Source: Tubiluchus corallicola
Lineage: Eukaryota > Animalia > Priapulida
Direction: 5' to 3'
DNA length: 64,000 bases
Assembly (NCBI GenBank): GCA_030141605.1
Contig: JAQGDQ010000085.1
Span: 1-64,000 of the forward strand
This document shows positions 578 through 41,196 of the stretch, one piece after another. Position 1 is the stretch's first letter. Each line of letters starts with the position of its first letter. Under the pieces are notes generated by a model, which had not been told where the DNA came from, did not search any database, and saw only the letters and a program-made list of their open reading frames with translations. The position numbers and the translations under genes were made by a program.

Positions 578-694
578 AAATGATTGATTTTATCTGAAAA
601 TTACGTTTTCATGTGTCTAGCTTGAAACGCACCTTCTTAATAGAATAAGAGCAAATTGATTGATTTTTTTAGGAGCTACTGATCAAAAATTATA

Positions 695-9092: not shown

Positions 9093-11869
9093 GCCAGAGC
9101 GTATACACTACATGTTATCCGTTATTTGTGTGTTTCATCTTTGCCCGTATTGTTGTAGTAAGTGCAAGTATAAGTGTAAATCGCTAAATAGAAACTGTTT
9201 CATCATTGGCCCAAGACTACGTGAAAGTTAGCTTCCTCCCTTCTAACATGATCCAGCAAACATAGTAGACATAGTTCAGCAGAATATGTAACCGCAATAT
9301 TTTGTACAATAAATATGTAAGAACTCATATATTAAGATAATGGTTTATTTGAGCATTAAAAAGAAATCTTGGAACCCCGCTTCGTAATAATTATTGTTGT
9401 GCGCTGCACCTTAATATAGGACCCTGCTGTAAACGAAAACTTTGCACCATTCACCACTTTATTCTCTTGCACCATTCTTTCACCATTGACGTGGTTCATG
9501 GGTTGAAGGAAAGCAGTGCACTGTCAATTTCTATCAAAATTATAACAAATTTTTACAAAAATAGATTGTAATTTTTGTGATATTGTGTATGAAGATAATG
9601 AACATTACGTAAGCTGCACAAGTTTGAACAAGTTTAAATTCGCTCTTACAGATATGAAAAGTCAAAAAATCTACCAGTTAAGCCATAACTTTCACGTGAA
9701 CGACGGCTACAGCCATATATAGATAGTATAAATAAATTTTATGCCCTCCAGACAATTTTTATGCAGAATCCTTTGTTTTTTCAAAGTTTAGTTGATAACG
9801 TTAAAATAAACATGACGATGAATTGTCATTTGCTATAAATATGATCTCATTACGCATTAAGAAAAACTGTGACTAAGCAAGATTGAAATTTGTAGCATTC
9901 ATTTTCTCTAAGCATAAACTATTTAGTGAATTTTACTGTTTAGATTCCTTGTACACCTAGCGTTCCATTGCAATTTTGCATTTAAATTCTTAGTAATTAC
10001 AATTATATTTCAATTATTAAGTTCGCCTATTTGCGTAAACAATGACTGATGTATGATTGCAGCAGTAAACATTGAACAGAGTTGCAAGAAAATTACAGTT
10101 ACAGCCAGGTGAGTAAACACTTAACTTATTCACTATTTACCTGGTTTGTGTATGTTCAATTCTCAAATGGCTGTTACTATTATTTTTTTGGATTGTTGCA
10201 TAATTACCTTTGTAATTGCATACCAAATGCAGTAATAAATTTTACATCTTTTTAGTAGGCGGATATCATATTTTTGTATAAAAGGATGTGAAAATTCAAA
10301 ATTTTGAACAGAGCGTTTTCTCAGTGAAAACCGAAGAATATTCAAGGTAACAGAAGAACGCCCGTCGTAAGGTAAGAGAGAATTCTGTTTTTACAGGCTT
10401 TAATTACTTATAAGTGAAAATGATGATTTATTGGGAAACATTCATAGGCAAATTTAGATTTGACGACGGGCATTGTAGATCAAGCATGCTATCTTTATTC
10501 ATGACATCGTTTTGACGTATGACGAGGTAAGGCATGAGTTAAGTAAGTTAAAAAACTCTTCGCTTTTCTTACGAGTCCCATATGTTGCTTCAGTCTGCAC
10601 TCAAACACAAATTAAGTAACGACATTCTTTTTTAATAATAATTAATCAGCAACTGTTTATATAACCGGCATGAACATCACAATACATCTAAATTTTAAAT
10701 TGGAAAAAACTGTTTTAAGTGGAACTACTGAGTGCAAGAAACTATTTTTTTATAAAAGTCATTTTGCCCCCACTGATCAAAGTGATCACTGATTAAAAAC
10801 AAAAATTATAATAGTGTTTCTATGAACGCTTGGGAAACAAACCCAACCATCAGTCTCCACTGGAACGTTTGATCTGTAACGCACCTTTTCTTATATTAAT
10901 GAAACAAGTTCATTTTAATTGATTTTTTAGGAGTTACTGTTCAGAAATCATAATGAACGCAATTGTTATCTGCGCTGTATTTCTTGTCTGCATTCATCTG
11001 GTTGAAAACGGGAAGCTGACGATCAAATTTGATGAGAAATTTGATAAAAGAATCGGTACGTATAGTTTTTCTGTAAAGCTGTCAACCGGACTGTTCTCTT
11101 CTGCATAAACTGAAAACCCATTGTAGAAACCTCTTTGATGAAGTGTGTATAATAATTACGTTTACATGTGACAAGAGGTTTTCGTTTGATGTATAAGCAT
11201 GTTCGTAATTGTATAAACCTAACAAATGTAGACTTCGTACTTTGTTAGAGCATTACAGTTGCTATATTTCGAAATTTGCATGAAAATTAAAGTTTGAAAG
11301 GAAACTTGTTCAGTAGGAGCAGGTGAGGTAAACCTTTTCAGTGTGATTCTGTTCGGTTACAAATTTTACTGCCTCGATAAACATGCACGCACCTTAACAA
11401 TGAAAACTTCATGAATAAACCGAAATTATTGAAGAACTTTCAAAATTTTCACAAAAATGATTCACAAATTCACGCATACGATAAGCAGGTTTACAGTAAA
11501 TGTTAAACTCAGTTAGCAGCTGCAGTAGCTCTTATTCTCATTTGAACAAGGATAATCACCGTGATTAAATCAGAGACTAACAAGGTGAGAAAAACGAAAT
11601 TTTTAATAAATAAAAATATTTAGGCACCAACATAGAAAACATGAACGATTAAGTATAAAAAAATTCCAGAAAACTGGTAATACTGGATCAGTAAATATCT
11701 GACGCTTTACTGTTAGGATCCACATATAAAAAACCTGTCACGTACATAAAAAAAAGTTCGTAATTCAAGCCAAAGACATTACCCAGTTCTAGTACATTTC
11801 ATAAGCTCGCTATTTTCTAGTTCATTATAAGAAGAAACGTAGGAGTCATGTCATTGATAATTTTTTAGT

Positions 11870-12340
11870 ATTGAACAAGTTTGTACCTTGTACGCCTAAC
11901 ATGCAAAGGTAGGCGTCCCTACTTCTGCGTACAATGGACTACGACAAGTTCCTCTGACAGTTCCTGTTGTTATCCTGAAAGCGTCCAGTTGAATTTCTTC
12001 AAACGGGAATTTCTTCAGACTGTTTAGCTGTGCAATTATCCCATATGCAACATGCATTTTCTAAAATGGGTGGTGTGAAGCTGGTATATAAAGTCCTGAG
12101 AGTTTTCCGGTCTAATTGTTATTTAAAGTTTGCGATCATGTCTTTATATGGCGGGACCATTGTTCATTAGACGAAAACGTAAGTCCCTGATGCTTATGAT
12201 TGTTGACATTACAGATGTGTTCGCCATCGAAGTATAAAGGTGGGTGTAATGGAATTGGTCTTTGAGATAACTAAGAATTCAGTTTTTTGAAGATTAAAAC
12301 TGACCAGCCATTTTTTGGACCATTGTTTAATTTTTTTCCA
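11870..12340 (-). mobile_element. CR1/L2-group LINE 3' ORF2 fragment in intron
   Basis: Minus-strand translation with frameshifts: LYTSFTPPILENACCIWDNCT..EEIQLDAFRITTGTVRGT, typical of the post-RT region. Confidence 0.6.
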
Positions 12341-12659
12341 TGTCATTATTCAATTCTAATGCAGATTGAACTGGGTTGTCTACCAGAATAAAAGGAGATG
12401 TAACATCAGCAAAAAGGCGGATATCTTGTTCCTTCTTCATCCTTGAATTTGTTTTTTTCAGAGCTAAATGGTAATGGTGAGCCAGATTCTGGAATCAGTA
12501 GTCGTATTGTAAATGGGCGTACTGCAGCCCCTGGAGAATTCCCATATTACGTAAGAATGCACTTTTTCATCATATTATTCAATAGGCAGTCCTTCCTAAT
12601 AATATACTTTTCTTTCTTTACAAAAAACACAAGTAATATTGTCCTGGGCACCATTCACG

Positions 12660-13065
12660 TTTCTATTGAGGCTAAGTTATGCATTTGGCCTATATAAAAG
12701 CGGTCTCCTCAGCTCGTTTGCTGGTCCAGTTAGATTAATCCACGACGGTGTAAACTCTATTTCGTCATTATTTTTGAATGTATTTGATGTGATTTGTCAA
12801 TAAAGGTATCCTTTTCCTCAAACATCATCCTCTTGTTTCGTGGATGGATGTCAGAAGAGTTATAGACTGATTGGCCTCCGCATCTGCTGGCACCAAACCA
12901 ACTTGGGTAGCTTTAGCCCTTGTCGGTGAGTTCTTTGGCTAAAGTATACTTCTAATTAAGATCCTACAGGTAACACACAGGTACTGCGCTTTACACGTGT
13001 TCCATTTGGAATTCTTTCTAGTCCCTGGATGTTATCAGGAACGGTATGTCACCATCTCACAAAAA
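12660..13065 (-). mobile_element. Degenerate non-LTR retrotransposon fragment in intron
   Basis: Segment absent from the paralogous intron of gene 1, higher GC; broken minus-strand frames ending ..SLHRRGLI.. resemble the GGRGL motif of R4/RTE-type ORFs. Confidence 0.35.
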
Positions 13066-15648
13066 TGGAAGATCAGGTTTTGCAAGATGACACTGTGAAA
13101 GTGGACCCTCGCCTGAAGTTCAATATTATTTCTCGATAACATACTATCTACTTTTTTTAAATTTCTTATAGCGGTGTAATTAATGCTATTATTGCAAACA
13201 ATAACACGTTACCGTCGACGTATTGTCATGTTTATGGAAACGTCGCAAAATGTTTTGAATGGTTAGATACTTAGAAATGTTGAATAGGCTATATACCCAC
13301 ATTAGCTAAAAAGCTAAATACCTGAATTAGAAACTAGGACAGGGCTTTTAACCAAACATCATGCAAAACAGCGTTGTATAAATTATGCGATCTTATTATG
13401 CCTATTAGACCTAACGTATCACATTATGCCACATTAATACTGTGTACTATTACTGATAACATTAAAATCAACTTTTAGATAATTGTAAAAAGCAATAGCC
13501 ACTACCCGTTTGAATTTACTCTTATTTGACAGTGCTGTCCTCTATATACGATCGCCAGTCATCGTTGCGTTGTCCGTTTAGTATGGATGGCGTGCTGGCA
13601 GCTGCTAAACACGCGTTTACAAGGTTATTGTATGAGGTTTTCAAGTTAATTAATGTGGGAGAAATAAACGTTAATGTCGTAAACTTTACATACATTGTCT
13701 CCGTTAAACGGTTGAACACATTATTAGCCAGCACATTACAAGAAGCAAAGCGCTGCAAGCTATGTCATATTAAAATAAATCATTTTCTTATCAAGACTTT
13801 GATGCGTACAACTAATACTCAGGGTAATATTCTAGTGTTAAAAGATGCCATTATCATTCATGTGGTGGGTCACTGATTGATCGCAATTGGGTTGTTACTG
13901 CTGCTCACTGTGTGGATTTCCTAGCTAGTCCGTACGTCTTCAATGATACAAAATAATATTTTTTTGCTGAACTTTCTCTCTGTTTGTTCGTTTGCCTGAA
14001 CACGTGTAATTTGTGTCTCTGTTTTTATTGGCTTATACAGATTTGTTTACTTATTATGGAATTATTAATTTTGCCCTTTGTTTACTTGACTGTTTTTCTT
14101 ATTTTTCCTCTTCTTCTTCTCCTTCTTCTTCTTCTTATTATTATTCGGTTTACATTTAATTGCTCATTGTTGTTTTGATATGTTTTTGTTTTTAGTTTTT
14201 TTCTTATTCGTTTTGTTGATTATGTTTTTGCAAACTTGTTTGTTTTGTAGCTTTTACTTCTCTTTTAAAATCACCAACGACGTTCTTTCTTACATGAGTT
14301 TGTTACAGAATTTAAAAAAAATCGAGGACTTATAATAGCGAGCAAATATTCGTTCACAAGCATCAACATCAAGGTTTCATTATTCGGCTATGATACAGCA
14401 GACACTTGTACAGTAATTTGAGATTCCTGCCGTAATGTATCAAAATTTAGAATCAATGCAAGATTTTTGATAGAAAAGAACATAGTTTAACCTTGAATAA
14501 GGTAGCCTGTCGTTTTCATGCTGGCTTGTTGTCTACTTAGTTTGTTCACTATAGGCTAGTGAACTCATCTACTTTACTTTTTACTTTTTACATTGTTTGA
14601 CTTTTTAGTAATGGATGCACCTATTTCATTAATCCTAGTCTTTAGTGTAATTTTTATCTTTTGTCTTGTATATAGTATTTTCATGCTGTCATAAACTTCA
14701 ATCTAAATCAAAGTGCACAGGTTACTTTGACTTAGGTCTTGCCCAGTGTAAAATTCTGGCTCTGCTTCAACCCATAAGGACGGATACCATTTCGTAACTT
14801 GGAAGAGCCGCAAGTTTTCTTGCTAAAGTGTCAAAAATAATAAGATATTTTATTTCTTAGGAGACAGAGACGAAAGCTCTTACTCCATTTTGGTGCAACC
14901 ACTTACTCAGATGCCACACAGTCCAGACGGGTAAGTCCAATACAAAGCCTTTCAAAATGTTAGTTTACAAAAAACATAAAATTTATGCATAAATAAGTGT
15001 TAATACTTATATCTCTGAATAATTGCAAGTAAAAAATAACTTAATTAAATTACTGTAGAAATTCAAGAATACTGGCTAATATTTTGGATAGACACTAACC
15101 AGATAGTGCAACAAATTTTTCGAAAGAAAATTAAAATTCTTATCATGAATCCTATTTCACACCCTTTTTTAGAACATAATAGAGCATATTGAGTAATTCT
15201 CACGAATTCATTGTTAGCAATTTTGTTTTTTACTGTCTTAGAATTATTAACAAGTGTAGCACAACTTTCTTAAACTAAGCCGAGCAAAGATCTAGAATTA
15301 AATTAGCAAAATTACTGCCTGATTTATAAACTAAACAAAAGTATTTATAAACCAGTTTAGATAGCTGATACCAGTTATGTGTATTTATCGCAACAGTAGA
15401 AAAAATAAACTCAAACTTGGAGCTTTCTCATTGTAGGACTGGTTATTAGGCCTACAGATGGCGATCCTCTATAGATTATTCTCAGCTAACGTTTTTGAGA
15501 AACACTGACGTGACTAACTGACTAACTGACTAACGCAACACACACAGTTGCTTGTGCATTTATCATCGTTACGGCCGTGGTTGAAGGCAATAGGCGCGAA
15601 AGGCCCTATCTGGCATATGGATAATACACAGAGGTCATTAATTTCCTT

Positions 15649-15984
15649 AATCATGTGATTCTTTTGACGAGAAAGTTGAAAGCGTCTACGAAAACTCAGA
15701 GCAATCAATAGTTTTTCTAATCATGGTGATTCTTTTGACGAGAAAGTTGAAAGCGTCTACGAAAGCTCAGAGGAATCAATAATTTTTCTAATCATGGTGA
15801 TTCTTTTGACGAGAAAGTTGAAAGCGTCTACGAAAGCTCAGAGGAATCAATAGTTTTTCTAATCATTGTGATTCTTTTGACGAGAAAGTTGAAAGCGTCT
15901 ACGAAAGCTCAGAGGAATCAATAGTTTTTCTAGTCATTGTGATTCTTTTGACGAGAAGTTGCAAGCGTCTACGAAAGCTCAGAA
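15649..15984. repeat. 71-bp tandem repeat (~4.7 copies)
   Basis: Unit AATCATGGTGATTCTTTTGACGAGAAAGTTGAAAGCGTCTACGAAAGCTCAGAGGAATCAATAGTTTTTCT recurring at 15719, 15790, 15861 and 15932. Confidence 0.95.
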
Positions 15985-17903
15985 GATGATAACGAAGTGG
16001 ATGGAGTCAGTAAGCAGAAGACGGAAGTGAAGAAGCGGAAAGTGAACATGCCTGCATGTCATCAAATGCAAAGAATCACTCGAGCTATTTTGTGTTTTTC
16101 ATTTTGGGCCTATAAATGCAAATAATTATTGAAAATGATGGCCATATCATTATGATCAGCAATCTCAGTTCCATTACAATTTAACTCAATAGGAGAAGAT
16201 TTATATGGGAGAGCAGATCATACTTTCTTCACTTGACATGTATTTTGTTTATTTACAATAATAAGTGCTCCCTGTTCCACGTTTTTAAGCTGTTTTGATG
16301 TTCGAGTTCTTAGAAAGTAACTGCCCAATTCCTCCCAATTACCTGCTTAATTTTACTGTTTTTTTTCAGTTGGACCTTCTCCAGACACTCTTCAGACAGT
16401 TCTTGTGCCTGTACTTTCTAACGACGTATGTGCAGATGCAATACGTGCAGCTACTGACTACTCCATACATATCATTGATTCATGGATCTGTGCTGGAACT
16501 TTGGAAGATGAGAGTGGAACTTGTAACGTTAGTAACATGTCTTTACCTTCATGCGATAAGTTTTATTAAATTAAATCACTTACAGTCTCCTCATTGTGGA
16601 ATTTAATTGCATCTAACATTTGAGACAAATTACTGACATAGTCGGTTTGAAAAGTCTAGGCCTACTGGAGACACAATTTTTTTATCCTACAGTTAATTTA
16701 GTTTTATTCTATATTTAAAATGTGCACCATGCTTAAACTATTAATACTGTAATATTTTTATAACCTGATTTGATTTGTTAGATTAAAAAGCTAAGCATTC
16801 TATTAGAATTGCAACAGGCCTTATATATATGTGAATGTTAGTTTTACGTCTGGTTTTAGCGTCTAGTGATATTATTTCATTTCATTTTTTTCATAAAATA
16901 CAACTAAAGCTAGCAACTTTTCAAGTATTAATGCTCCTAAGTTAATCAGAATTGCTTATATCAACAAAACTACAAGTTGTTGCTTTCTTCAGGGAGATTC
17001 TGGTGGTCCAATGGTTGAAGAATCAACAGGAGAGCTCATTGGTGTCGTTTCCTGGGGTGTGGAATGTCAGCGTAATGGCGCTCCAGGCGTAAGAACTCGA
17101 GTGACATCATTCAGACAGTGGATCATTGATGAAATTAAGTGAATATTTTATACTGTGATTATTTTGTGCGACTAAAAGCAACAGTTAGTTAATGTTTCCT
17201 ATTGAATAATGAATATAAAAATAGTGATAAGTGGAAAAAGACTTTATTTTTTAATAATTTGGTTTTTTAGGGTTTAAACCCTTTTTTTATGTTTTCAGAC
17301 ATAATTATACAGTTATTTTCCTTTATAATAATACACTCAGAACGATTTTAAAATTGAAAAGACGTCAAAAGTGATATTTGGAACTACATTAGTCTATATA
17401 CATAGGCAAATTACAAGTCGTTTTGTTGTATAACTGCTCTTATGCTTGGTGTACAATCGAAGATTTTACTACTACGGTCGTTTCTCGTTACAGCTCTAGC
17501 AGCGTCTAAGATATACATTTTAAAAAATCGCTCAATCTCTGTTAAATTTATGTAATACTACGTCCTTTATATAGCATGGGTTGTTTAATGGAATGCTTCT
17601 ATATGTGTGTACTGGTGAATTATTAAAACAATGTGTAAAGTGCCGGAAAAATGCGTGTATTATAATTGTAACAAAATAAATGTATGACATTAAATCTGTT
17701 AAAATTGACAGAAAGTGTTGATTTTAGATTTTTTTGTAAAATTGTGGTAATAAACTCAACTCAGAAACTACTTTAAGAGAGAAACACGTGAAACTTTTGA
17801 GAAATAAATGAAAAATAAAGTTCAACAAAGCTCAAAGCATGTTAAGCTTTAGAAAGATAAACAGTAGTGGTGGGCGTAATAGACCACTAATAATCCGTTA
17901 CTT

Positions 17904-24580: not shown

Positions 24581-27580
24581 ATGATGAATGTTTTTAAGAA
24601 AAATAAAGTTCGTCAAGTCGAAACAAGGTCTCAACCGGACATAGTGCCGTTTTGGTCAGCCTTGAAAATATTGCTTATGTTAATGCGGATCAGCGCCATG
24701 TGGCGCTTTTCCATAAAAGGCGATGTCGTGAAAGAGAACAAATGTATAAAAGCTGCCTCTGTAGGACTGCTTGTGCTTTACACATCAATGGCTTCAGGTC
24801 TTGTTGTTTACAGCATCCAGTATAACAATTCGGCTGCAGCAATTATGTTCACACCATTCATTTGCTTTTCTTCAGGAGGTGTGATCAACTTGGCTACCAT
24901 ACTCAAGCAGGGTCAGCTATTTTTAGAACTGTTCAACAGTTATCACGCCTACATCTTAAAACAGGAGCAAGAAACTCTCAAGACATTTGCAAAGACTTGC
25001 AAGAGATGTACGGTAGTAATCTTCATTGGCACAACAATAATTTCACTTTTGTGCGCTATTGTTGTAACATTTGATGTTCTCGTACTGCCAGAGGGTCCTT
25101 CTCCACTTCTACAAGTTCTGTCATTTACCTGCACGTTACCCTTTACTGTCATCTTCATTCTAGATGTATGGCTGCCTGCAGCAGTTCTCTTGACCTTGGC
25201 GCTCTTTTTGCAGCACGAGTTTCACGCTGTCGCCAAAGTCATGTCCACAGATGAAAACATTGCCACGAACCTGAGAACCTACCGTCAACGCCACCAGCAG
25301 CTCTGTCAGCTTACGTCCGACACAAACGACACGTTTGGTCCAATACCATTCACATTCTGTGTCACCTCTGTGCTGATCATTCTTTGCTACATGTACATTT
25401 GCAGCGAGCCAAGCTACAGTGCGGTTGGAATATTCATGATTTTGGAAATCGTGGTTTTCTTTGCAGCTCAGTCTGCATTTTTTCTGGCAATGTGTTGGAT
25501 ATGTGGGCAAGTCAAGGAAAGAGTAAGTAAGTTTCACTCATCCTGAGCGTGACAATTTTTTCTTTAATTAATTGTTTATAATTAATCGTGATTTCAAACA
25601 TAACAATTGCATTAGTATCATAAAAATTGGCTTGTTATATCTGAAGGAAACAGACCTTTGAGAGCATTTTGCGTTTTAAAACGTGAACGATGCGAACGAT
25701 TTGTGTTTAGGAAATGAAAAAGGATTACGTTCGCTAGATCCAGGATGTACTGAGCTGTGAAACAATATTACGTGTGAAACAATTTGTGACGTAATTTGTT
25801 TGCCTTGCTTACTTGGGTTGATTGTTGCGAAATGGCGAAAACCTCTATTATTTCCCAATCGTATTTTCTCCATATTAAAGCTAACATCACTTTCTCTTTT
25901 TTTAGGCAGAAGAACCACTTGATTTATTACATGGAATCTTTCAAGCACAACTGAATTCTGACGAAAAACATGAGGTGAGGCTTAATTTTGTTATCATAAT
26001 TCATTCTTTTCCAGTGTGATATATGGGACTGTGATCGTGCAGAGGCTATTCATTCTTTATAAAGTGTTTGTCTTTTATACGTTTCCTTTATCCTATAGTG
26101 ATTGTAACGAAATAAAAGGAACAGTTTCGTATTAATACCTAATATTACTACTACACTGTTTAACAGTTTCTTCTTGTTTTTGACTTCACCATGGATTACA
26201 AGAAATAAACCAGCTTTCTCATAAAATTTATTGCATCTTCTATTTTATTGCAATCAACGACAAAGCCTGGCTCAGGGCAAAACCATGATGGGCATCAATA
26301 AACATTCCCCTATAATAATTATGTCTAATATTCGTGCGTTTTACTCAATTTTCAGATAGTTATGTTTACCAAAAGGATTGGTTATCAGAAAACCGAGATT
26401 ACAGCTTGGAAATTCTTCACCATTGACACAACACTCATTTTAACTGTAAGTTTAAAAAACAAGTTTTCATAACATTAACGAACTAAGAAGAAAAAAATAA
26501 ATAAAAGCAAAGTATAACCCAGAATTATAAGTTGCTAATTTGTGACCTAGCGGTTTCCCACTTCATGTCACGTGGGCATATGAGACCTCCACAAATCTCT
26601 ATCTATGCTCCCTTGATGACAATGCAGCCCGTGTATCATTCCATATTCTCCAACCCACGAACTCTTTCTTTCGGTTTTCAAAATGCCCTCTCCTTCAGCA
26701 GTCCATGTCGTACCAATACATCTTGAATCCCTCAAATCCTCTATTAAGTTGTTTCCAGTACAACTTCGTTCCTGACGTTGTCCTGCCACCTTGTCTCCAG
26801 AATGCGCCATAGATATTTTGTTTGAACACAGCTAATATTTTATTCTGTTTTTGGCATTTTCTGAGCGGCATCTTCAGGACCGGTTTATCCAGTATTGCCT
26901 GGTAAAGGCTGCAGCCTAGGGCCCCTCAAGCTTGGGGTCCTCAAACTTCGGTAACATTTGGTAAAGGATCTGTTGTTTCATAAGCATTGTGTTGAAATAA
27001 TTTTGTGCGATAATTTGATTTGCAATAAAATAAATAAATGATAACAGTAGCATTTCATTAAGAATATTTTTACAGATAAACAAAAGAAAGGTTTTCTAGT
27101 TTATTAAGAATCTGCAACCAGTTTAGTACAATTAAGGTTATGTAAATGTTGCTAAAATATATCATCGGCATAACCAAATTGGGTGTTAAACGGTGGATTC
27201 GTCGGAGGGGAGTCTCAATATCTTTTAGCCTAGGGTCCGCAAAAGGTTTTAATCCAGCCATGTGTATATTAAATCTAATTTTACCAAGCTCTTGGACAGT
27301 CTCAGCTTCCTGTTCTGACTATTACTTTTCAGACTTCCAATTCCAGAATAATTTTCTTCAGGCGGAAGAAAGCTGTCCTCGCAGTCTTGGCCAGCAACTT
27401 TAGCCTTACAAGTAATTTAGATTTTGCTTTCTTGACTTACGATTTGGTTAAGCTTTTCGCCAGTTTCAATATACGTAGAACTGAGTTATTTTTCTTTTTT
27501 TCCAGGCTGCAAGTATATTCGTTACGTATTACGTATTGCTCGCTCAGTTTCAACCTACTTTTGGCGTCAGCGACGATTGA
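24581..27580 (+). CDS. Gustatory receptor / Gr-like (7tm_7 chemoreceptor superfamily), ~391 aa
   Basis: Exons 24581-25522, 25906-25974, 26356-26445, 27506-27580 joined by three phase-0 GT-AG introns; multiple TM helices; C-terminal ITAWKFFTID..LILT|AASIFVTYYVLLAQF matches the TYhhhhhQF signature. Confidence 0.92.
26560..26815 (-). mobile_element. RTE-like LINE 3' fragment in the last Gr intron
   Basis: Minus-strand WRILETRWQDNVRNEVVLE resembles the RTE 'ilgi.W.D.v.N.eVL' motif. Confidence 0.5.
26875..27262. mobile_element. Possible non-autonomous TIR element (MITE)
   Basis: Imperfect inverted ends CAGGACCGGTTTA ... TAATCCAGCCATG with internal GCCTAGGG motifs near both ends; no clear TSD. 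Confidence 0.3.
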
Positions 27581-30500: not shown

Positions 30501-32639
30501 GACAGATGAGCAGATTGATGAAGCTTATTTTAAACTGACAGTGCTGACAACAAGCCCGATGATGTCATTAGTATTTCCAGAAATTTATAACAAAATTTAT
30601 CAAAGCTAATCATCAGTGGTGATATTTGCTTAATTTTTTTCTGTTATTTGTTTTTAGCGATTTAATAGAAAACTTTTAAACTTGAATTTGCTGTGACGAA
30701 TGATAATGAGAATTTGTATTTTTGTTTCACCAATTTAATTAAAAAAAATTATTATATTTAATATATATAAAATCTTTATTGCAGAAGTTATACCTATAAC
30801 AGTCAAAGACAGTTGTAGGCAATTCAATTCATTTATTAACTCCTCAATAATTAACAAAATACAGTATTAGGAATACATGCAATATTACGTAACAAAGGAG
30901 AAGGGCAGGGAAGAACACGTAGGTTATCTAGTCAGCCACCCTTAAATAGCAACGATTAAGTAAAATTAATTTTGGCACCGTTTTTAATTTAAATTTGAAT
31001 TATGTTGACGTGTGTAATTGGCAATTAACTGATGGGAAATGCAATATTGTAGAACATTACAATTTAAATAACCAAAAATTTACAATTCTAAATACTGTGA
31101 ATATGCGATGCAAACAAAATAAAAGTAACTTAAGATTTTTAACATAACAGAAAATGGATAATGTGAGCATTAACTAAAAAAATCCGATAAAAAAACAGTA
31201 GAATGATCTACCAAAGATGTTCATAAAAAGAATATAATAAATTAAACTAAGGAAAAATAAGGTAAATATAAATCATACAAAACAAAACAAGGAAAACAGA
31301 AGCAAATAAGAAAAAACAAAACTGAAATGTTGTAATAATAACTGAAGCTGTCGAGAAAGAGAAGGCAATAGTGTTAAATTAGAAAAACAAATTTATAAAA
31401 GTTCATTTAAAAAAAATAATTTTGCACGAGGTCCAGTTAGTTTAAATGATTTCTTGGTAGATTGATTAGTAGGTGACACCGTAAGTTAAATGAGGAAGGA
31501 CCATGGTTTTGTAGATTAATAGTTTAGTTTTGATATTAAGATATTTGCCTTTTCTTGTTTGAGAAAAAAATACCTTGTCCCATTTTTTGTACGATGCTAT
31601 TAACTTGATTGTCCCATTTTAATTTATTATTAATTTTCATACCTAGGAATTTGGTTTCTTTAGATTTACAAATTGTTTGATTAAGAACGTTAAGTGTTGA
31701 GCTATCAGTTTTACATCCTTCATTTGGGCTTAATATTAGAAATACTGTTTTTCAGGGTTCATTTGTAAGTGATGAAAATCCAGAATTGATTTCATTTCTT
31801 CTGTTTTGTTTTAGTGTGTATACAGCTGTATTTGGGTCTGTGTTATTTGAAAATAGATTGGTATCATCTGCATATTGTGTCATGCTGCAGTTTTTTTTAG
31901 AATATTTGGAATATTGTTTACCTAAATAATAAATAACAGTGGCCCAAGAACTGTGCCTTGCTGTGCCCCATGTTTGATCGTACCACATTCTGAACATATG
32001 TTGGTTTGAAGCTTTACTCGTTGTTGTCAAAAGCTTTGCTAAGGTCTAAAAAAGCTGTGGAAATATATTCATTGTGATCTAATAGATTGCGCCAGTTTTC
32101 TGTCACGAAAATTATTGCATAGATTGCACTATGATTTTTTCTGAAACCAAACTGCTGTTTGTGTAGTATTTCTGTATTATCAAGGTATTAACATAATTGG
32201 TCGTACAGTAATTTTTCAAATATGTTAGCGACTCCATGAACTACTGATAGTTATTAGGATCCTCTACGTTTTTGTTTTTTGGCTTAGGTGTGACGTTTGC
32301 AGTTTTACAGGTATTTGAGAATCTAGAGCGCATTATCATTTAGTTATAAATATAGCATATGTGTTTTGCTATTATGCTGCCACTGATTTTAATTATTATG
32401 GATGGTATGTCAAGTTGTCCTGAGCCTTTAGATAGTCTCATTAAATTTATGGTGTTTATGACCTGTAACGTTGTTACTGGCTCAAAATTGAATATGTGGT
32501 CATGATCCTTTTCAAAGAAGAGCTTGTTATACTCATCTCTCTTCATATTCACTTATCTGTGAGAAATTCTGATTAAGTATCCTTGACGTGAACATAAGTT
32601 TTATTATCTTTTTTAATTTTGTTTATGGGTGCCTGTTCT

Positions 32640-33312
32640 GTATAAGATATAGGAAATGCAAATACAATATATAGAAACGCTGAGAAAGATAGACATTAAT
32701 AATAATGATTTAATTATGACAGCATGCATATAATAAATGGCATGAACCAGAAGTAAAACTTTTTAGGTACTTGCACCATTGTAAACACGTCCAAATAATA
32801 ATTGAGAAAAAAAGAACAAAAAAGACGAGGGTTTTAGGCAATTTAAAAAAAGTTGTGCAAAGCAAGGATAGAAGTGATGGGTAAAAGAATGTTCAGCAGG
32901 ATAGGAAGAGTGGCTTGTGAAGTTTCAGCTCATGAGATGACGAAGCACTCTGGATTCTAGGCAAAACGACACACACGGTTATGACTGTTGTGTCACACAG
33001 AAGCAGTAGGTGGTTATCAAGACTAGTTTATATAAGAATCAAACAGATATCGTTTAACTGACGTTTTAAAGCGGTAAATGTTACACTGGCACTTTACATT
33101 GGGTGGTAGTGAAGTCCAAAGTTTAGGTCCGCTATGGCTAATGAAATGTTTTGCAATATTGGTTCTGCAGAAACTGACTTGGTAATCATTATAGCGAGTA
33201 TTATGTGATTTGCCATTCTTAATTATAGGATTCTGGAAATATGTAGGGAATAGGTCACTGTTAATCTTATAAACAAAAATGGCAGTGTTATAGGAAATCA
33301 GATCATCACACT
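32640..33312 (-). mobile_element. 5'-truncated second LINE (ORF2 C-terminus + 3' UTR) nested in the old LINE
   Basis: YNTAIFVYK..HNTR..CRTN..ISHSGPKLWTSLP..FKTSVKRYL* is a classic CR1/L2 ORF2 C-terminus, but it lies upstream of the host element's RT. Confidence 0.7.
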
Positions 33313-33618
33313 GCCATTTTTGTTTTGTTCTATTCAACAGTGTTTTCATAACATCCCATTTTTCTTGTGAAGTTTTGGCATTTGCACAAATGTTTTTATA
33401 GTAGCTATTTTTTAAATTCAAATTTTTAGTATTAATTTTATTACGTGCGTTTTTGTATTTGTTGAAATGAATTTGGTCTTTGCGAGCTATGTAAATTTCT
33501 AATGTCTCCTTTTTAGTTTGTTGAAGCTCAGGTGCCCACCAAGGTGAAATTTTATTTTTATTTCTCGATATTGTATCATTATTTATAGTTTTAATCGTTT
33601 GCATTAGAGCATGTATCC

Positions 33619-35318
33619 ACACAATACCTTATATTATCGATTATTATATTCACCTGTTCGTCTACATGTGTTGTTGTGCATATGTCTTTATATATTGGTA
33701 TTTACATATTTACAATCCCTATAATTGAATTATTCCTCTGTGTCTGGGTCCTTTAGTGAATGGTCAAATTTACGTGCTAAATCCCTCCAATCCCTAGAAC
33801 GACATCTAATAGCATCACTGTAAGCCGGATTGATGTAGTACTCGTAATTTAATATTTGGAGATTGAACAAGCTCTCCTCTCTTTCTTCAACATCCGTATT
33901 GTTACTCCATATTTCCACAACCATATAAGTAATGACAGAATCGAATCTATCTTTATCAGACATGATTGATTTATTACTAAGTTTACTTAATTCAAATTGG
34001 CAGAAACAATAACACTGTATTAATAACGTGTTGGATCTCCCGCTGGTGGACATGTCACTGTCAACCAGTTCTAGAATTAAATTCGAAAAAGCAGTTTGCT
34101 TAATCGGTGGAGGTGCTTGGATGTGTGCCAGAGTGTCGGCAGAGCTAGGTATAAATAAAATAAACATATTATTAAACTGTTTAAATAGGTGCAGTTTCAA
34201 TTAAATGAAAGGAAGATTTCAGATTCAAAATTTCAAGATTTTATCATAACAATGGAGCAAAGACGGATTTGTGCATTTCTACAAAAAAAATGTAAGACTG
34301 TAGCTTAATTTTAGTTACATATATTAATATTTTGTGGCTGAGGGGACGATTCAAGCTACAAAGTTTTAAACTAGAGGAAGAGAGGATGATTTTTCATATA
34401 CTACAAGTATGCTAAAATGTTTGCATTTCAATACTAGTAATACTGCAAAATGTTTCTGATAATTAGATAACAGATTAAAGTCTTAATTAAGGGCAGGCGA
34501 ACCCAACCGATTTTTCTTTAAGAATCAAAGAATTTTGAAATAAGCTTAAGAATCTTTCATCACATCAAAATTTTCAATTTTGTCACTAACTAACAATTTC
34601 TAGTTTATTATTGTTTTATTCTAATGTTTTATTCCAGCTTATTATTGTTAATTAACAGCAAGTAAACAAGTAGACATATTAAACTTCAACATTATATTAT
34701 ACACACACAAAACTAATAATACTTTTATTACGTAAATGTTTACTTCAATTCTTAAATGTTGACGTAAATTTGAATTACTGTCAATAAACTGTTTGCTACT
34801 TGGCATGTGATGTATGGATATGCAAGGGCGATTCTAGGCAGTGTTAACGCGTTGTCTCCTGCTCCTTTGCCATTTCATAGAAACTTGTAAGTCATCTGCA
34901 AGTTTCTAAATCTATCTTGGCCCAGCTTAGACATTCTAGTGTCTTTATCTTGTTTAATAGCTGCTGCCGCGAGAAATAAAATGAGTGATGATATCAATGG
35001 CATCCATATAAACAGCTCTAACACCAGCTTGTTTGTCAGTCTTAAGTTTCCTCTTGTACATCTCAAGTCTTATCGCCTCCTGGTTGAACCCCCCAGTAGG
35101 CGAAGGATTCAAACATGGATTCTGTGTATCCATAATTATGTTGTAGTTTACTAAAATTGAGGGCCAATTTCTTGAGTTCTTATAGTGTCTCCCTATACAT
35201 CCTGTACTCATTGGTTTCACTATTTGATGGACTTCTTGCTGTGGCAATTTTGACAACAAAATGCTCTCTTTTATGGAAAGTTTCTATTCAATTACTTATT
35301 TGCTGAGCATCTTTGTGT
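33619..35318 (-). pseudogene. Endogenous viral element: Phenuiviridae-like (phlebovirus/tenuivirus) nucleocapsid (N) gene, frameshifted and split
   Basis: Reconstructed 35248-34779: ..ELKKLALNFS..MFESFAYWG/FNQEAIRLEM..DAIDIITHFISRGSS/..RMSKLGQDRFRNLQMTYKFL*NGKGAGDNALTLPRIALAYPYITCQVA. Then 34156-33730: IPSSADTL..PPPIKQTAFSNLI..LLIQCYCFCQFELSKLSNK..VEEREESLFNLQIL. Colinear with phlebovirus N motifs recalled from RVFV (QELAIQF, EFAYQGFD, LALTRGN, KMSKEG..KYKL, LTLSRVAAA..TCQA, YPRHMMHPSFAGMV, LLQFSRVINP). Confidence 0.85.
34157..34778. repeat. Host dispersed-repeat insertion splitting the viral N gene
   Basis: Shares AGGATGATTTTTCATAT (34383 vs 52536) and GTTTCTGATAATTA (34452 vs 52615), in the same order, with a second locus in this window. 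Confidence 0.55.
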
Positions 35319-36557
35319 GAACAACAAGAATTCATTTCATTCTATTCAATTCCATTTTGATTATTTCTACATCATTTGCGTTTATGTTTCGACTAGATAT
35401 CCATATGACTTTATTAATGCGCTGTAGATTGTTATTTGTGACACTTATAATGTAATTGTGATCTGAGAAATGACCAGAAAGTGTTTGTTTTGAGATGTCA
35501 TGTGATCTATAAGTGTTGCTGTCTTTTTTGTTATCCTTGTTGGCTCCTTGTCAGTTAGTAGTGCAAGATTGTGTTTGCTAAGTACGTCTCTATATGCTTA
35601 ATACACAAGACCCATTGGATTAAGTGTGTCAGTGTTTGTATCACCCATTAAAACAATTTGTCTGTTGAATAAGCACTTTCGACTTCTAGATCAGGATGTT
35701 CTAAAAAGTGTTTCGTTTTTTGTTTATGAAAACCAATGTAAAAATTGGTCCTTGAAATGCGATAACCAAAGCGGTTATGCTGAGTGCGAACACATGTCTT
35801 TAGGTTGTACTGAAGTATATCGCTAAGCATCGGCCGACCAGCATTTGTTAGTATATGTAGTTTGTACTAGAAAGAAAATAATTATGTAATAAATGTGAAA
35901 AAGGAAAATTTAGGTTTGTCAGTAAGAACAGGATAGCACTAAAAAAACAGTTTGGAGAAAGAAGGTCATGGGAGTAGGTTTACATATTATAGTTTTAGTG
36001 AGAGGTGACTATATTCTCATTTTTGTAGGAGTGTAATTATAATCATAAAATAGTTTGTATTAATTGAGAGAAACTCTGTATGCATATAGTTATAATATTT
36101 TTCAAGGAGTATGTTATGAAGGGAGTAAGGGAGACAAAAAGGTAGATACAAATTTTTGGAGCCATCAGGTGGTGGGTGGCCTGTAAACTACACATATTAA
36201 ATAATTTATCACTTTGAACCAGAGGGTTTTGATTTTATATGTTTTTATTTCTTTGACTTCGTTGTAACTGTAATTTAAACGGACTGCAGAGTGCAACGCC
36301 ATACCCTCGTTTTATTCCTAGATGATCTTTTCTAAAAACTTTATAGTCTTTTATTGAAATTGACTTAGTAAGAATTGTTTTATTGAACCAAGTTTCACTA
36401 TGCCAATGATAGTGTTTTCCGTACCACGAAGCATTTCTTTTAAATGGACGTGATTTTTAACAAGGCTATGTATATATGGATGCTAAAATTGGCTTCTTTT
36501 TGATATTTTAATAAAATATTTTTTTGCATCGTCTTTACTAGATGTTCTAATGTTAGT

Positions 36558-36602
36558 TGGCCCTGGGTTAGTTTCAAGGCCAGATGTAATAAGTAGTAGT
36601 TG
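36558..36602 (-). other. 2A-like (StopGo) peptide at the N-terminus of LINE ORF2
   Basis: Minus-strand QLLLITSGLETNPGP immediately before the APE domain; matches ExNPG|P with G in place of the consensus D. Confidence 0.75.
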
Positions 36603-36888
36603 ATTTTGTAGCCAACAAAAAAGACATGAGACAGTTTACTATTGCTTTAAGAGAAACACGTTGTTTTAACTGATGACGTGGCTCACGTTTACAATAGAAT
36701 TTGCTGTTGTCTTTACTTTTGTTTTGTGCTTCTGCGTTGTTATGAATGCATCTACCATTTTTTACAATTAACATGTAGGCACTACAATAGTCGAACATAT
36801 TTATCGTCTGTGCCTGTAAGGTTTCCTACCTGACATGTTGCCTGTAAATTGGCTTTTTTATAATTTGTCATATTAGGAGGAGGCGTAC

Positions 36889-37176
36889 TCAGTTGAAGAA
36901 ATTGTAAACGCAATAGTTCTGTCTGGTTGGGCGTCGTCTGTTGTATGGCTGTTGTCCATATGGTCTGTTTCTGTACCTGTTTCTGCGATTTATATTTTGC
37001 TGTTGTTGTAATTGTTGTTGTTGTTGTTGCTGTATGTGTGAAATTCGGTTAAGTTGTGTTTGTACGTGTGCCATGAATTGTGCCATCATTTGTTGCTGCT
37101 GAGACTTGTCGGCCACTAAATGAATCCAGTTTTGCAACTGTGGTATATCTGGGATAAACTGTGCAAGTCTAACCAT
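36889..37176 (-). CDS. Gln-rich/Arg-rich short ORF between LINE ORF1 esterase and ORF2 (probably part of the ORF1 region)
   Basis: 95-aa ORF overlapping the end of the esterase ORF; poly-Q followed by RRNRYRNRPY..RRRP. Confidence 0.35.
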   Translation of the reverse strand: MVRLAQFIPDIPQLQNWIHLVADKSQQQQMMAQFMAHVQTQLNRISHIQQQQQQQLQQQQNINRRNRYRNRPYGQQPYNRRRPTRQNYCVYNFFN

Positions 37177-37525
37177 TAGATCTTTTCATGCTAACATCAG
37201 CAGAATCAGGCCTACTCATTTTCAGCAGCATGCGCTTTAAATGGGACGCACTATGGGACGTAAATATTTTTGTTCCTTGCTCATTCAAATAATGTAAGTC
37301 ATTCTTGTAAAACTTGCACTGGATACTTGATTGGCCATTGTTCCACAAGCTATTATGGTTACAGAGAACAATACCTGCAACATCACTAAGCTGTTTTTCA
37401 AGCATTACATTAAACAATTTGACTGAATATATCAGGTTGGTTTTACCACTTGAGTTTATCTGTGAGACAATTAGGCTTTTAAATTTACATTTGAAACTAC
37501 AGACTACTTCTACATAGTTGTTCAT
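37169..37525 (-). CDS. LINE ORF1 SGNH/GDSL esterase-like domain (C-terminal half, truncated by the adjacent LINE)
   Basis: LIVSQI..VKLFNVMLEKQL..IVLCNHNSL..FYKNDLHYLNEQGTKIF resembles the 'DxxHLNxxG' block V of retrotransposon SGNH esterases. Confidence 0.6.
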   Translation of the reverse strand: MNNYVEVVCSFKCKFKSLIVSQINSSGKTNLIYSVKLFNVMLEKQLSDVAGIVLCNHNSLWNNGQSSIQCKFYKNDLHYLNEQGTKIFTSHSASHLKRMLLKMSRPDSADVSMKRSNG

Positions 37526-37742
37526 ATAATTGTTTATTGATTTGATTTGATTTAATTTGATTTACTTCTTTATTTCAAACTTTCGTTCATATATATATAT
37601 ACAACAAGAATACAAGTTAATAAACGACACAAAGCACACAATGTAAACACAACACAAAAACAAAATTACAAAAAATAAAAATGATAATTATAATAACATT
37701 TCGCATTGCTTCAATCATTACATCAATGAATATGTAAAAAAA

Positions 37743-40610
37743 TTAAGCATACAATTTTATTCTCCAAATCTTTCTTATACTGGAAGTAAATAAAGCATCA
37801 CTAGCGAATATCGTTCTACACAACAAGTTTTTACTGTTTGAAATTCTAGTATCCAGACTGTAAATGCTTTTCCTGTAAATAACATCAAAGTACACTAATT
37901 TATGCGTCACAGAAATGTTCCTGGCACTGTGATCGAACTGGTAATTGAAAAATTTTCGCACTGATTTATTATGAGCAACCTTAAGTTTGTTCAGATTATA
38001 ATTATGAAAATGCCGCCAGGTGGCTATACAGTAGAAGCTATTACAATAAGTATTGAATAGACGTGTTTTTACACCATTGGTGCAACAGTAAAATTTACGG
38101 CATAGCTTATTTGCTCGAGAGTAATAAATGCCTACTTGTCGTATGATATCTAGATCGTCTCTGTTGTCCCTAGAAATGATGTGACCAAGATATTTTTCAT
38201 TATCACAAGGCTCAATAACCGATCCAGCTAACTTAACTGTTCCGAACTCAAAGTTGCTCATAATGGAAGACGTTATAGTCAGAAGCTTAGTTTTGTCAAC
38301 ATTAATTAAAATATCAAATTTTGCTGCATAATCAACATATATATCACATAATTTCTTCAGAGCAGTTGTCGTGGTACTTAATAGGCAAATATCGTCAGCA
38401 TATGTCAAATGATTGTAATAAATATCTGCAATTTGACATCCAAGATTACTAGAGGCTAGATTTTCACTAAGTTCTCTAAAGTAGAAATTAAACAGAAGAG
38501 GGGACATCTTTCCTCCCTGTCGTACACCATTGCCAACTTTAAAAATCTCAGAGTTATAATTGCCCCATCTCACCAGCATGCATTGATGGGTGTAATAAAA
38601 AACAAGTAAACGAACAACAATATTTGGAATCTCAGTTTCAATGAGTTTTAAAAACAGTTTAAAATAATTAATTCTATCGAAGGCTTTGGAGGCGTCTAAA
38701 AACATTATATGTACAGTACTCTGGCGGTCTATATAATAGTCTACTACTTCTTTTAACATGTTAATACATAACTCAGTACCCAAGTTCTCCACATAACCAA
38801 ACTGGTTGGGTGTGGCAGGTAAACAGTCGGCATAACGAGTCAATACAACAATTTCTAAAAGTTTACTAGAAACAGAAGATAACGCGATGGGTCTGAAGTT
38901 ATTTCTGTCTGTTATATCTCTATTTTTGTCTTTAATAAGTGGCACAATTACTGATAACATTAGTGAGTCTGGTAAGAAACAATGAGTGATACAAGAGTTA
39001 TAAAACAATGCGAACAAAATTGGTAACACGTGAGAGGCATATCTAAAATGCTCTGACTTGAGACTGTCTGGTCCAGCTGACCTATTCAATGCTAGCTTTT
39101 TAATGGCTTGCTGTACCTCAACTCCCGTAAATTTGTTAATTGCATTGACGTTTCCAGATAGTGCTTCACGTAATTTATTGGCAAGATTGCTGTTATCAAC
39201 AGAGTTAAGAAGATTCTGATAATGATCACCCCACATGTCACAAATTGCCTTTTCGCCTACTACGTCGCCAATTTTTGGTGGAAGTGGCATTTTTGAATTA
39301 GTTTCTTTTTTGATCTGAGCCCAGAACTGATATGAGCTGCAGTTCATAAGTCTATATGCAATTTTATCGGCAATAATGCTTTGTTCCTGACGCTTACATT
39401 CACGCAAAGCTTGTTTAAATTGTGCGCGTGCACGAAACACAACATTGGCTAAATGCCCAGAACGAGGTTTGCCGTTCAAGTACCAGTTACGGTAGCATTG
39501 GCGCAGAAACTTATGCTTATCAGCAACAAGCTCATTCCAGCCAGGAATTATTTTCTTTTTAATGTCGGGTTGTTTGCTGCCTGGAATAGTACAATTTGCA
39601 GCATAACTGAGTATCCATACTATATTGTCATAGTATTCTGTAAGCTGCAATTTATGATTGGTGTTGTGGCAGTTTATATCTTCGCAAAGAAGTGCGTCAT
39701 ACGGTACTGCAAGTTTAGACAACAAATCTTGCGTCATTGACGTGTAATCGAACAGGTGGTTGCTGCTAGCTTTATCCCAATCTACCTGATGCCGCGATAA
39801 ACTTTTAGTGGACTTAGAAAGCACAGCGCCATCGCAGACATCAGCAGCAGTAATGAAATTGTCATTACTAGAGGCAGATATCATGTTTTCCGTATCAATA
39901 TTCATTAACATTGGCATATGATCAGAAGTAGTAAGATCATAATTTACACTAATTGATCTAATTAATGTGTCAGCAGCTTCGGTACTGACCACGTGATCTA
40001 GCCACGTAGTAGTGTTGTGGGCTACACTAACAAATGTAAAGGTTGAGTTGGGCAGCCTACTAGTATCGGATATCACATAATTATTGACGCTACAAATATT
40101 ATTTAATTCTGTAAAATTTTGTCTAGACGGATGTGAATTAAAATCACCAATACAATAAATGTAACTAGAGACAGTGTCTTCTATAATGGAATTTAGGTTA
40201 CCTAAACATTGTCTAAATTCATGGGGAAAGTAGACATTAAAAATTGTTACAGGCATTAACTTATCTTGAAATATTAAAGATATCGCCATAATACTATACT
40301 GATTATCATTGATAAGTATTTTCCAGTCCACGGGAAGATCCTTCCTCCACAAGATACCCAGTCCGCCTTGCGGCCTTCCCTCGGGCATTCCAGCAGATAG
40401 ATCAGTAGGTGATACACCACGACCGTAGAAATTTGGATGGAAATATGACAGATAATCCAGTTCTTGCTTAGGGAGCATTGTCTCTTGAAGACAAATTACG
40501 TCACTAATTTTACATAGTTCGTGCAGAACGTACTGAGATTCTGGATGCATAATAGAGTTGCAATTGTAGCTGGCCACTCGAATAGTTTGTTCTGTTGTTG
40601 GGTGGTTCAT
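37743..40610 (-). CDS. LINE ORF2: apurinic-like endonuclease + reverse transcriptase (955 aa)
   Basis: SYNCNS, CLQET, IGDFN, WLDH, SDH (APE); FRPIAL, NQFG, FLDASKAFD, GVRQGGKMSP, YADD, KYLG (RT); no stops. Confidence 0.97.
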   Translation of the reverse strand: MNHPTTEQTIRVASYNCNSIMHPESQYVLHELCKISDVICLQETMLPKQELDYLSYFHPNFYGRGVSPTDLSAGMPEGRPQGGLGILWRKDLPVDWKILINDNQYSIMAISLIFQDKLMPVTIFNVYFPHEFRQCLGNLNSIIEDTVSSYIYCIGDFNSHPSRQNFTELNNICSVNNYVISDTSRLPNSTFTFVSVAHNTTTWLDHVVSTEAADTLIRSISVNYDLTTSDHMPMLMNIDTENMISASSNDNFITAADVCDGAVLSKSTKSLSRHQVDWDKASSNHLFDYTSMTQDLLSKLAVPYDALLCEDINCHNTNHKLQLTEYYDNIVWILSYAANCTIPGSKQPDIKKKIIPGWNELVADKHKFLRQCYRNWYLNGKPRSGHLANVVFRARAQFKQALRECKRQEQSIIADKIAYRLMNCSSYQFWAQIKKETNSKMPLPPKIGDVVGEKAICDMWGDHYQNLLNSVDNSNLANKLREALSGNVNAINKFTGVEVQQAIKKLALNRSAGPDSLKSEHFRYASHVLPILFALFYNSCITHCFLPDSLMLSVIVPLIKDKNRDITDRNNFRPIALSSVSSKLLEIVVLTRYADCLPATPNQFGYVENLGTELCINMLKEVVDYYIDRQSTVHIMFLDASKAFDRINYFKLFLKLIETEIPNIVVRLLVFYYTHQCMLVRWGNYNSEIFKVGNGVRQGGKMSPLLFNFYFRELSENLASSNLGCQIADIYYNHLTYADDICLLSTTTTALKKLCDIYVDYAAKFDILINVDKTKLLTITSSIMSNFEFGTVKLAGSVIEPCDNEKYLGHIISRDNRDDLDIIRQVGIYYSRANKLCRKFYCCTNGVKTRLFNTYCNSFYCIATWRHFHNYNLNKLKVAHNKSVRKFFNYQFDHSARNISVTHKLVYFDVIYRKSIYSLDTRISNSKNLLCRTIFASDALFTSSIRKIWRIKLYA

Positions 40611-40618
40611 ACTGCAGG

Positions 40619-41000
40619 TTAAATTCTGTCCACAGTGGAAGCTATGGAACTCGTAGAACCCCAGGACTGCATTTTTGACTGTTCTAAAGCCGAGTTCACA
40701 TGCAATGTTGCAGTACTGATAGGCTCGTTCAATCCAGGTGTTTGTCTCATGTCGTCAGTAGATGTTGCTGTCTTACTATCTTTCTTTGGTGCAGCGGTTT
40801 TTGCAGGGTAATACGTTTTCAGTAGCACCCCAGCTGGCCAGATCTCCGGATTCATTATCTGGTCCTTCTCTTCGTTACCGAAGCAGCTAACCACAAATGA
40901 GCTATACGTATTGTACTTCGTCTGCAGCTGTTTTACAGTCACCTTAATGTCGCATTGGTCTATAATTAACCGTTCTATGTCACCAGTGTTAGTGTCCGGA
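40619..41000 (-). CDS. LINE ORF1 C-terminal remnant
   Basis: VKQLQTKYNTYSSFVV..IMNPEIWPAGVLLKTYY, a common LINE ORF1 motif; stop lies 8 nt before the ORF2 ATG. Confidence 0.75.
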
Positions 41001-41015
41001 TCCAGTCGCTCCAGA

Positions 41016-41196
<181 letters not shown>

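Follow-up and report, generated by a model that had tools for sequence, protein, structure and literature searches.

Endogenous elements derived from the nucleocapsid (N) gene of Phenuiviridae are described in ixodid ticks in the accessible part of one report (PMC10675110), and the available text of another (PMC6580184) describes an approximately two-fold enrichment for fragments of non-LTR retrotransposons in the regions of Ixodes scapularis viral elements. In Aedes, viral elements, including phenui-like ones, occur both as hybrids with LTR elements and standing alone, according to the accessible portion of PMC8048955. The endogenous bornavirus elements known as EBLNs are LINE-1-made copies of viral mRNA that carry poly(A) and target-site duplications, in the account given by the available part of PMC3205384. 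Within the accessible text of a survey of 31 invertebrate phyla (PMC11097642), no mention of phenuiviruses was found. Searches of open-access main texts turned up no bunyavirus fossil reported with surrounding LINE sequence, with a snatched leader or with its termini preserved, and the papers listed included none on template jumps between a LINE and a virus.

The locus considered here lies in a stretch of 64,000 nucleotides of DNA from the priapulid Tubiluchus corallicola, referred to as the window, and is almost certainly a phenuivirus-like N fossil. As far as the available texts on the tick (PMC10675110, PMC6580184) and Aedes (PMC8048955) elements go, those are likewise genomic DNA copies of phenuivirus-like N. 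In contrast to them, no close relative of the fossil was found (the best match is 45% over 49 aa); it covers a transcription unit in full, beginning at the end motif, and it interrupts a single LINE ORF2 whose sequence continues in order on the far side. It has in common with the Aedes aegypti LTR hybrids (Bel/Pao and Gypsy, from the same portion of PMC8048955) that viral sequence lies within a retroelement, but it is a LINE, a non-LTR element, that houses the fossil, and there is no sign of hybrid amplification. Like an EBLN, as presented in the accessible part of PMC3205384, it is one viral N transcription unit that was probably copied by a host non-LTR reverse transcriptase (RT); unlike an EBLN it has no poly(A) or target-site duplication, and it may carry a cap-snatched leader. 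The fossil works like a processed viral mRNA copy, and it is not classed as an EBLN type because both of these marks are missing. To our knowledge, bornaviruses have no cap-snatched leader. Phenuivirus N fossils are already known in ticks and other arthropods, and this locus adds a member with an unusually complete 5' end.

A broken nucleocapsid gene and its relatives

A preliminary description of the locus had proposed a Phenuiviridae-like N fossil made up of three minus-strand ORFs, with two frameshifts, two stops and one insertion, and this picture was borne out. The three ORFs (34954-35259, 34875-35066 and 33730-34200) are all present in the window; the reading frame shifts twice (near 35090 and 34960) and contains two in-frame stops, and an insert of ~630 nt interrupts it. 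The peptide motifs lie where they had been placed, in order over three successive frames: ELKKLALNF at 35179, FAYWG at 35104, GFNQ at 35091, FISRG at 34980, RMSKLG at 34937, TYKF at 34892, LTLPRIALAYPYITCQ at 34847, PPIKQTAFSNLI at 34110 and FELSKLSNK at 33996. A dead start codon had been suggested near 35248, and no ATG is found there. The extent first given, 33619..35318, was right at its start (35318) but not at its downstream limit, which is now set at about 33702; in addition, the first ~50 nt of the third ORF are part of the inner insert. Coordinates are collected in Table 1. Stops, frame changes and a nested repeat are the marks of decay in a host genome, and with such lesions and a genomic repeat within the viral part, the source cannot be a live RNA virus. 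The listed lesions all fall in the 5' half of the N copy (34780-35248), and the 3' half (33730-34149) is open over 417 nt, a distribution that is probably due to chance.

Table 1. Features of the viral copy and of the surrounding LINE (positions in the window)
Feature	Position	Strand	Remarks
Host LINE ORF2, first part of APE endonuclease domain	36130..36660	-	decayed, ends approximate; ETNPGP 36575, ETW 36399, VYRPP 36188 in order
Nested high-copy repeat in host LINE	35661..36129	.	ends approximate; breaks motif series between VYRPP and GDTN
Host LINE ORF2, APE domain end and linker	35332..35660	-	GDTN 35645, PTR 35543, IDH 35510, SDH 35466
13-nt A-poor spacer, candidate cap-snatched host leader	35319..35331	-	putative; outer limit set by LINE frame end
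ACACAAAG, phenuivirus segment-end motif	35311..35318	-	shuffles, real windows, literature motif
Putative viral 5' untranslated region (UTR), 70 nt	35249..35318	-	between end motif and expected N start
N gene piece 1	35090..35248	-	no ATG at expected start; one in-frame stop
N gene piece 2	34957..35094	-	extends Tenui_N match to profile position 42
N gene piece 3, conserved core	34780..34958	-	one in-frame stop; Tenui_N E=1.4e-7
AT-rich later insert in N gene	34146..34779	.	ends uncertain by ~15-30 nt; high-copy repeat
N gene piece 4	33730..34149	-	139-codon open frame, stop at end
28-nt tail after N stop	33702..33729	-	no poly(A), no complementary end motif
Host LINE ORF2 resumes, between endonuclease and RT	33323..33701	-	translation; A-rich sense strand like left flank
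Nested 5'-truncated LINE 3' end (ORF2 tail and 3' UTR)	32600..33322	-	ends approximate; high contig depth, bins 32511-33512; translation
Host LINE RT domain, decayed	31469..32560	-	RVT_1 E=6e-5, 0.02; translation

The viral identity was assessed by searching Pfam with the broken frame as read, with X at stops and breaks. None of the three ORFs as given matches Tenui_N (PF05733; gathering cut-off 25 bits). The piece 34776-34970, with X at its stop, does so with 31.8 bits (one of five pieces tested), and one of two reads, that with X across the second break, reaches E=2e-9 and 37.9 bits. The repaired-frame search that had been proposed, run in this form, is above the cut-off, but over profile positions 42-123 of 224 only. 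Of the ~297-aa N protein envisaged earlier, the central 82 residues match Tenui_N, while nothing significant was found for the pieces at either end, so that N homology is statistically shown for the central 82 residues only. Against the PDB, the core (piece 3) has a nucleocapsid, 4j4w, as its sole match (E=0.017).

An exhaustive search of 1.84 billion proteins with the N core returned two matches. The best of them (P0001) is an unnamed 272-aa Logan protein with 45% identity over 49 residues and E=3.5e-4 to piece 3, and none of 3000 shuffles is as good. It is itself a clear Tenui_N member (E=9e-21) in a cluster of one, and matches solved phlebovirus-type N at 2e-8; this divergent phenuivirus-type N sits on a 2.7-kb Logan contig. 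The other (P0002) is a bacterial repeat protein without a Tenui_N domain and was dropped. With proteins of PF05733 (the Logan protein and solved N such as PDB 4j4w and 3lyf), the fossil shares the conserved core with the LTL.RIA.A...TCQ block, whereas it differs from them in being broken and in the divergence of its two end pieces, neither of which gives a significant pairwise match. Word-index protein searches gave nothing for piece 3 or piece 4, and scans of viral contigs with piece 3, piece 4 and the Logan protein gave no relative. A metagenome locus (L001) was dropped as a chance 25-residue match in the shadow frame of a bacterial gene, which we take to be dprA-like. Only N is present in the element, the L protein (RdRp) being absent, and the one relative found is too few for a tree. 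As suggested before, the source virus appears to represent a phenuivirus-like lineage without a close relative in the collections searched.

The remaining pieces are less conserved. Piece 1 alone has no significant match in Pfam or to the Logan protein; it ends FAYW/GF, where solved N has FAYQGF. Piece 2 alone matches the Logan protein weakly (126/3000 shuffles semi-global, 441/3000 local). Piece 4 alone has no match in Pfam, PDB, Atlas (scores all <0.8) or fold searches, and aligns with the Logan protein collinearly and in the expected region, not significantly (215/3000 shuffles local; 2185/3000 semi-global). Its AlphaFold single-sequence model is helical and of low confidence (pLDDT 45.7), and fold searches with this low-confidence model gave generic helical matches, with no N among the matches listed, an outcome that carries no weight either way. 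Its frame is fully open, which 0/5000 shuffles equal, and in G content it resembles the 5' viral half (p=0.80) and departs from the LINE (p=0.002). Because of this non-random open frame and virus-like composition, piece 4 is likely to be the C-terminal half of N.

The host LINE, the inner insert and independent genomic data

The viral piece had been placed co-oriented between the APE and RT regions of a LINE, and this position holds. Upstream on the same strand, 7/7 endonuclease motifs occur in order, where 2000 shuffles reach three at most, and two RVT_1 matches lie downstream; the motif patterns were set after the sequence was seen, and the same count is 3 on an intact ORF2 at 37743-40754 that belongs to another clade. 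The left LINE frame runs for 42 codons beyond SDH to a stop at 35334-35332. The two flanks form one decayed LINE ORF2 that continues in order across the element, whose junctions were placed from translation alone. We assign 33323..33701 to the LINE by general LINE features, and assume that the host LINE belongs to the Jockey group and is CR1/L2-like. The APE pieces have no Pfam or PDB match, and the LINE linker has no database match by word-index protein search or Pfam; the word-index protein search with the linker found no uninterrupted copy of the host LINE, and no empty site was encountered. The nested repeat between the two parts of the endonuclease domain stands out by a contig depth of 1358 in bin 35517-36017, against ~15 beside it, and by loose ends at 35841 and 35999. 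Neither this nor the other nested LINE insert has a clear target duplication (longest shared words 8 and 6 nt). Judged by eye, decay has gone about equally far in the LINE and in the viral piece, so no age gap between them is shown.

Some further features of the window were recorded. Its sequence is typical of animal DNA, AT-rich and containing microsatellites. At 36889-37561 on the minus strand, immediately ahead of the ORF2 of the host LINE, there are two frames without a Pfam match, one of them glutamine-/arginine-rich, which are possibly the ORF1 of this LINE. The ORF2 at 37743-40754 (minus strand), of a clade other than that of the host LINE, is intact (1003 aa, with endonuclease and RT) and is preceded by an ORF1-like frame at 40619-41026 (minus strand); this LINE is apparently young. 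A 321-codon frame at 24581-25546 (plus strand) encodes a gustatory-type 7tm_7 chemoreceptor (E=4e-7), and ~600-6200 and 10800-17200 (plus strand) form a tandem duplication with a period of ~10-11.5 kb and trypsin-like exons. An Rfam search of the window gave no match.

The insert that divides the N gene contains a high-copy repeat, with a contig depth of 3219 in bin 34014-34514, and a contig of one DNA run (X2 record 14) matches 34400-34792 and then continues with 284 nt of other sequence past 34792, a copy with other flanks. It is bordered by a 10-nt direct repeat (34785-34794 and 34173-34182), a length that 35/3000 shuffles reach. Its borders are also splice-like: GTAATT at 34778 resembles a donor, and a pyrimidine-rich stretch whose end lies near 34145 resembles an acceptor. 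Splicing between them would leave the N frame not open, and for this reason the insert is more probably mobile DNA of later arrival, and less probably an intron.

Contigs of four DNA runs were compared, three of them from one sample, which may be the source of the window, and the fourth from another study; all four cover the element region. Both junctions, which earlier had been singled out for checking, are bridged by these public contigs: the 3' junction by three (X1 record 5, X2 record 13 and X3 record 19, all from the one sample that is possibly the window's source), and the 5' junction by X3 record 20 and, in the second study, by X4 record 31 (19 differences in 635 nt). The second study also has a contig (X4 record 30) that runs over one boundary of the inner insert. 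Independent genomic data show the element attached to host DNA, and no single contig among those of the four runs spans the whole of it. Over the viral parts, depth stays at the low background, a hint that the viral element is single-copy, contig depth being no copy number. No RNA data set was listed as containing the sequence, a result without bearing on expression. One X2 contig joins 32532 to 36311 via 10 other letters, so that 3.8 kb with the whole viral element is missing; this form is an allele or a paralogous LINE copy, deletion-like rather than an empty site.

The ends of the viral copy

The viral part begins with ACACAAAG at 35318, 70 nt ahead of the expected N start. Tenuivirus segment termini are ACACAAAGUC, partly common to other phenuivirids, in the available part of PMC8148189. 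The motif occurs five times in the window, counting both strands, and its occurrence by chance in the 83-nt gap is rare, being met in 82/20000 shuffles and in 380/127834 real 83-nt windows (~0.3-0.4%). A hairpin in the 5' UTR was considered and rejected as no better than shuffles (z=-0.76).

Between the end motif and the LINE frame lie 13 bases with a single A; equally A-poor 13-mers number 65/2273 in the LINE and 24/932 in the viral part. Phenuivirus mRNAs carry a 12-14 nt non-viral leader obtained by cap-snatching, as given in the accessible text of PMC11162785, and the general mechanism of cap-snatching is covered in the accessible part of PMC6555543. The length of the spacer and its non-LINE composition would fit a snatched host leader and are suggestive, not proof. 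Taken alone, and for an mRNA template by either route discussed below, this leader reading is evenly poised between true and false. Both contigs that bridge the 5' junction are without 2 nt somewhere in the span, so the length of the spacer may differ between alleles, and two other contigs stop at 35324, within it.

At the other end, the copy stops 28 nt past the N stop. There is no poly(A) at the 3' junction (the longest A run is 3), and the complementary end motif CTTTGTGT is absent across 33000-35400. The boundaries of the element, from the end motif to 28 nt past the N stop with no complementary terminus, match those of one transcription unit. The RNA of SFTSV is without a poly(A) tail, according to the available part of PMC13118471, and absence of poly(A) is to be expected where the template is an untailed phenuivirus mRNA. 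A target-site duplication was not found at the element ends, where the longest shared word, 6 nt, is of a length usual in shuffles; a duplication that is very short or has decayed may exist.

Routes into the host genome

An RNA virus without a DNA stage needs a host RT for integration. On balance, we consider it somewhat probable that a whole N mRNA was copied by a host LINE-type RT and later inserted into an old LINE already in place. In this sequence of events, a phenuivirus-like virus would have infected the germ line, and the template would have been its capped, untailed N mRNA, with the 13 bases before the end motif as a snatched host leader. A host non-LTR RT would then have copied the mRNA end to end, the copy would have entered the LINE at a single site where hardly any LINE sequence, if any, was gained or lost, and it would since have drifted without selection for the protein; its present role, if any, is putatively that of a small RNA source. 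An mRNA template is suggested because the copy halts shortly past the N stop without a complementary terminus, as a subgenomic untailed mRNA would. The preliminary description had offered template switching or later insertion. Later insertion is somewhat favoured, since the LINE holds two other inserts and the viral piece itself contains a third, and since a plain insertion predicts that the LINE resumes in order; template switching during the retrotransposition of the LINE is its main rival. Against the favoured reading, the usual marks of LINE-made viral copies, poly(A) and a target-site duplication, are both missing, and the shared orientation has only even odds under later insertion, whereas it is required if the LINE RT changed templates.

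Such a change of templates would be a single event, in which the LINE RT, in the course of inserting its own element into the chromosome, switches to the untailed viral mRNA at its 3' end, copies it to the capped end and jumps back to the LINE RNA, onto its upstream part and at nearly the position it had left; copying of an RNA already joined as LINE-virus-LINE is a variant of it. The model predicts the same orientation, an in-order LINE and a complete 5' end, with neither poly(A) nor a target duplication, and the similar decay of both parts (by eye) agrees with it. Jumping of a non-LTR RT between separate templates has been shown in vitro for R2, in the accessible part of PMC8857657, and LTR-virus hybrids from reverse transcription are described for Aedes in the available text of PMC8048955. 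However, two jumps are needed, with a return to nearly the same base, three other insertions at the locus make later insertion ordinary here, and the chimera is present at low contig depth with no sign of spread. We regard this origin as doubtful. The fuller proposal, that a complete cap-snatched N mRNA including its leader was stitched into LINE RNA by template jumps of the LINE RT and then fixed in the germ line, is improbable.

Repair of DNA breaks provides another route, and one that we also think rather improbable. Here, cDNA of antigenome or genome RNA, not mRNA, would have ended up in the old LINE as a patch over a double-strand break, with the 13 bases and a nearby 12-nt repeat as repair filler. 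The missing target duplication speaks for this route, and Aedes viral pieces have been integrated alone, one with a 27-nt site loss (as described in the accessible part of PMC8048955). The 12-nt word is common to the LINE flank (35340-35351) and the UTR (35282-35293), which 4/5000 shuffles equal, but words of this kind are not rare in the genome (38/1439 real neighbouring pairs), and the repeat was set aside as a meaningful signal. The exact end motif, the stop just past the N stop and a spacer of the reported leader length also speak against break repair.

The open 3' half raises the question of whether the host once made, or in part still makes, use of the N copy, with the inner insert as an intron and the open 3' piece as a kept exon. 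The donor-like and acceptor-like sites would suit such co-option, as would the confinement of the lesions to the 5' half, but splicing between these sites gives no open N frame, the insert includes a high-copy repeat and is met elsewhere between other flanks, and four lesions would fall in one half by chance with a probability of ~8% (a simple binomial, our own estimate). Co-option is very unlikely. An assembly chimera or a chance resemblance, which three of the four pieces having no significant match alone and the lack of one contig covering the whole element might suggest, can practically be dismissed: the Tenui_N score passes the Pfam cut-off, a live RNA virus is excluded by the stops, the frame changes and the genomic repeat found in the viral part, and DNA contigs of two studies contain the viral part and bridge its 5' junction.

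Phenuivirus mRNAs are without poly(A), and the route by which they enter host DNA, and from which template RNA, is for this reason a puzzle. At this locus an exact segment end goes together with a spacer as long as a leader and with boundaries like those of an mRNA, and this makes the question of the entry route testable. If the leader reading is true, the spacer should be the capped start of a host transcript; if the leader reading and the template jump are both true, the element would be a fossil of cap-snatching and would indicate a route for untailed viral mRNAs into genomes. The element is common to the samples of two studies and so provides a datable marker, and it records a phenuivirus-like lineage in an invertebrate host.
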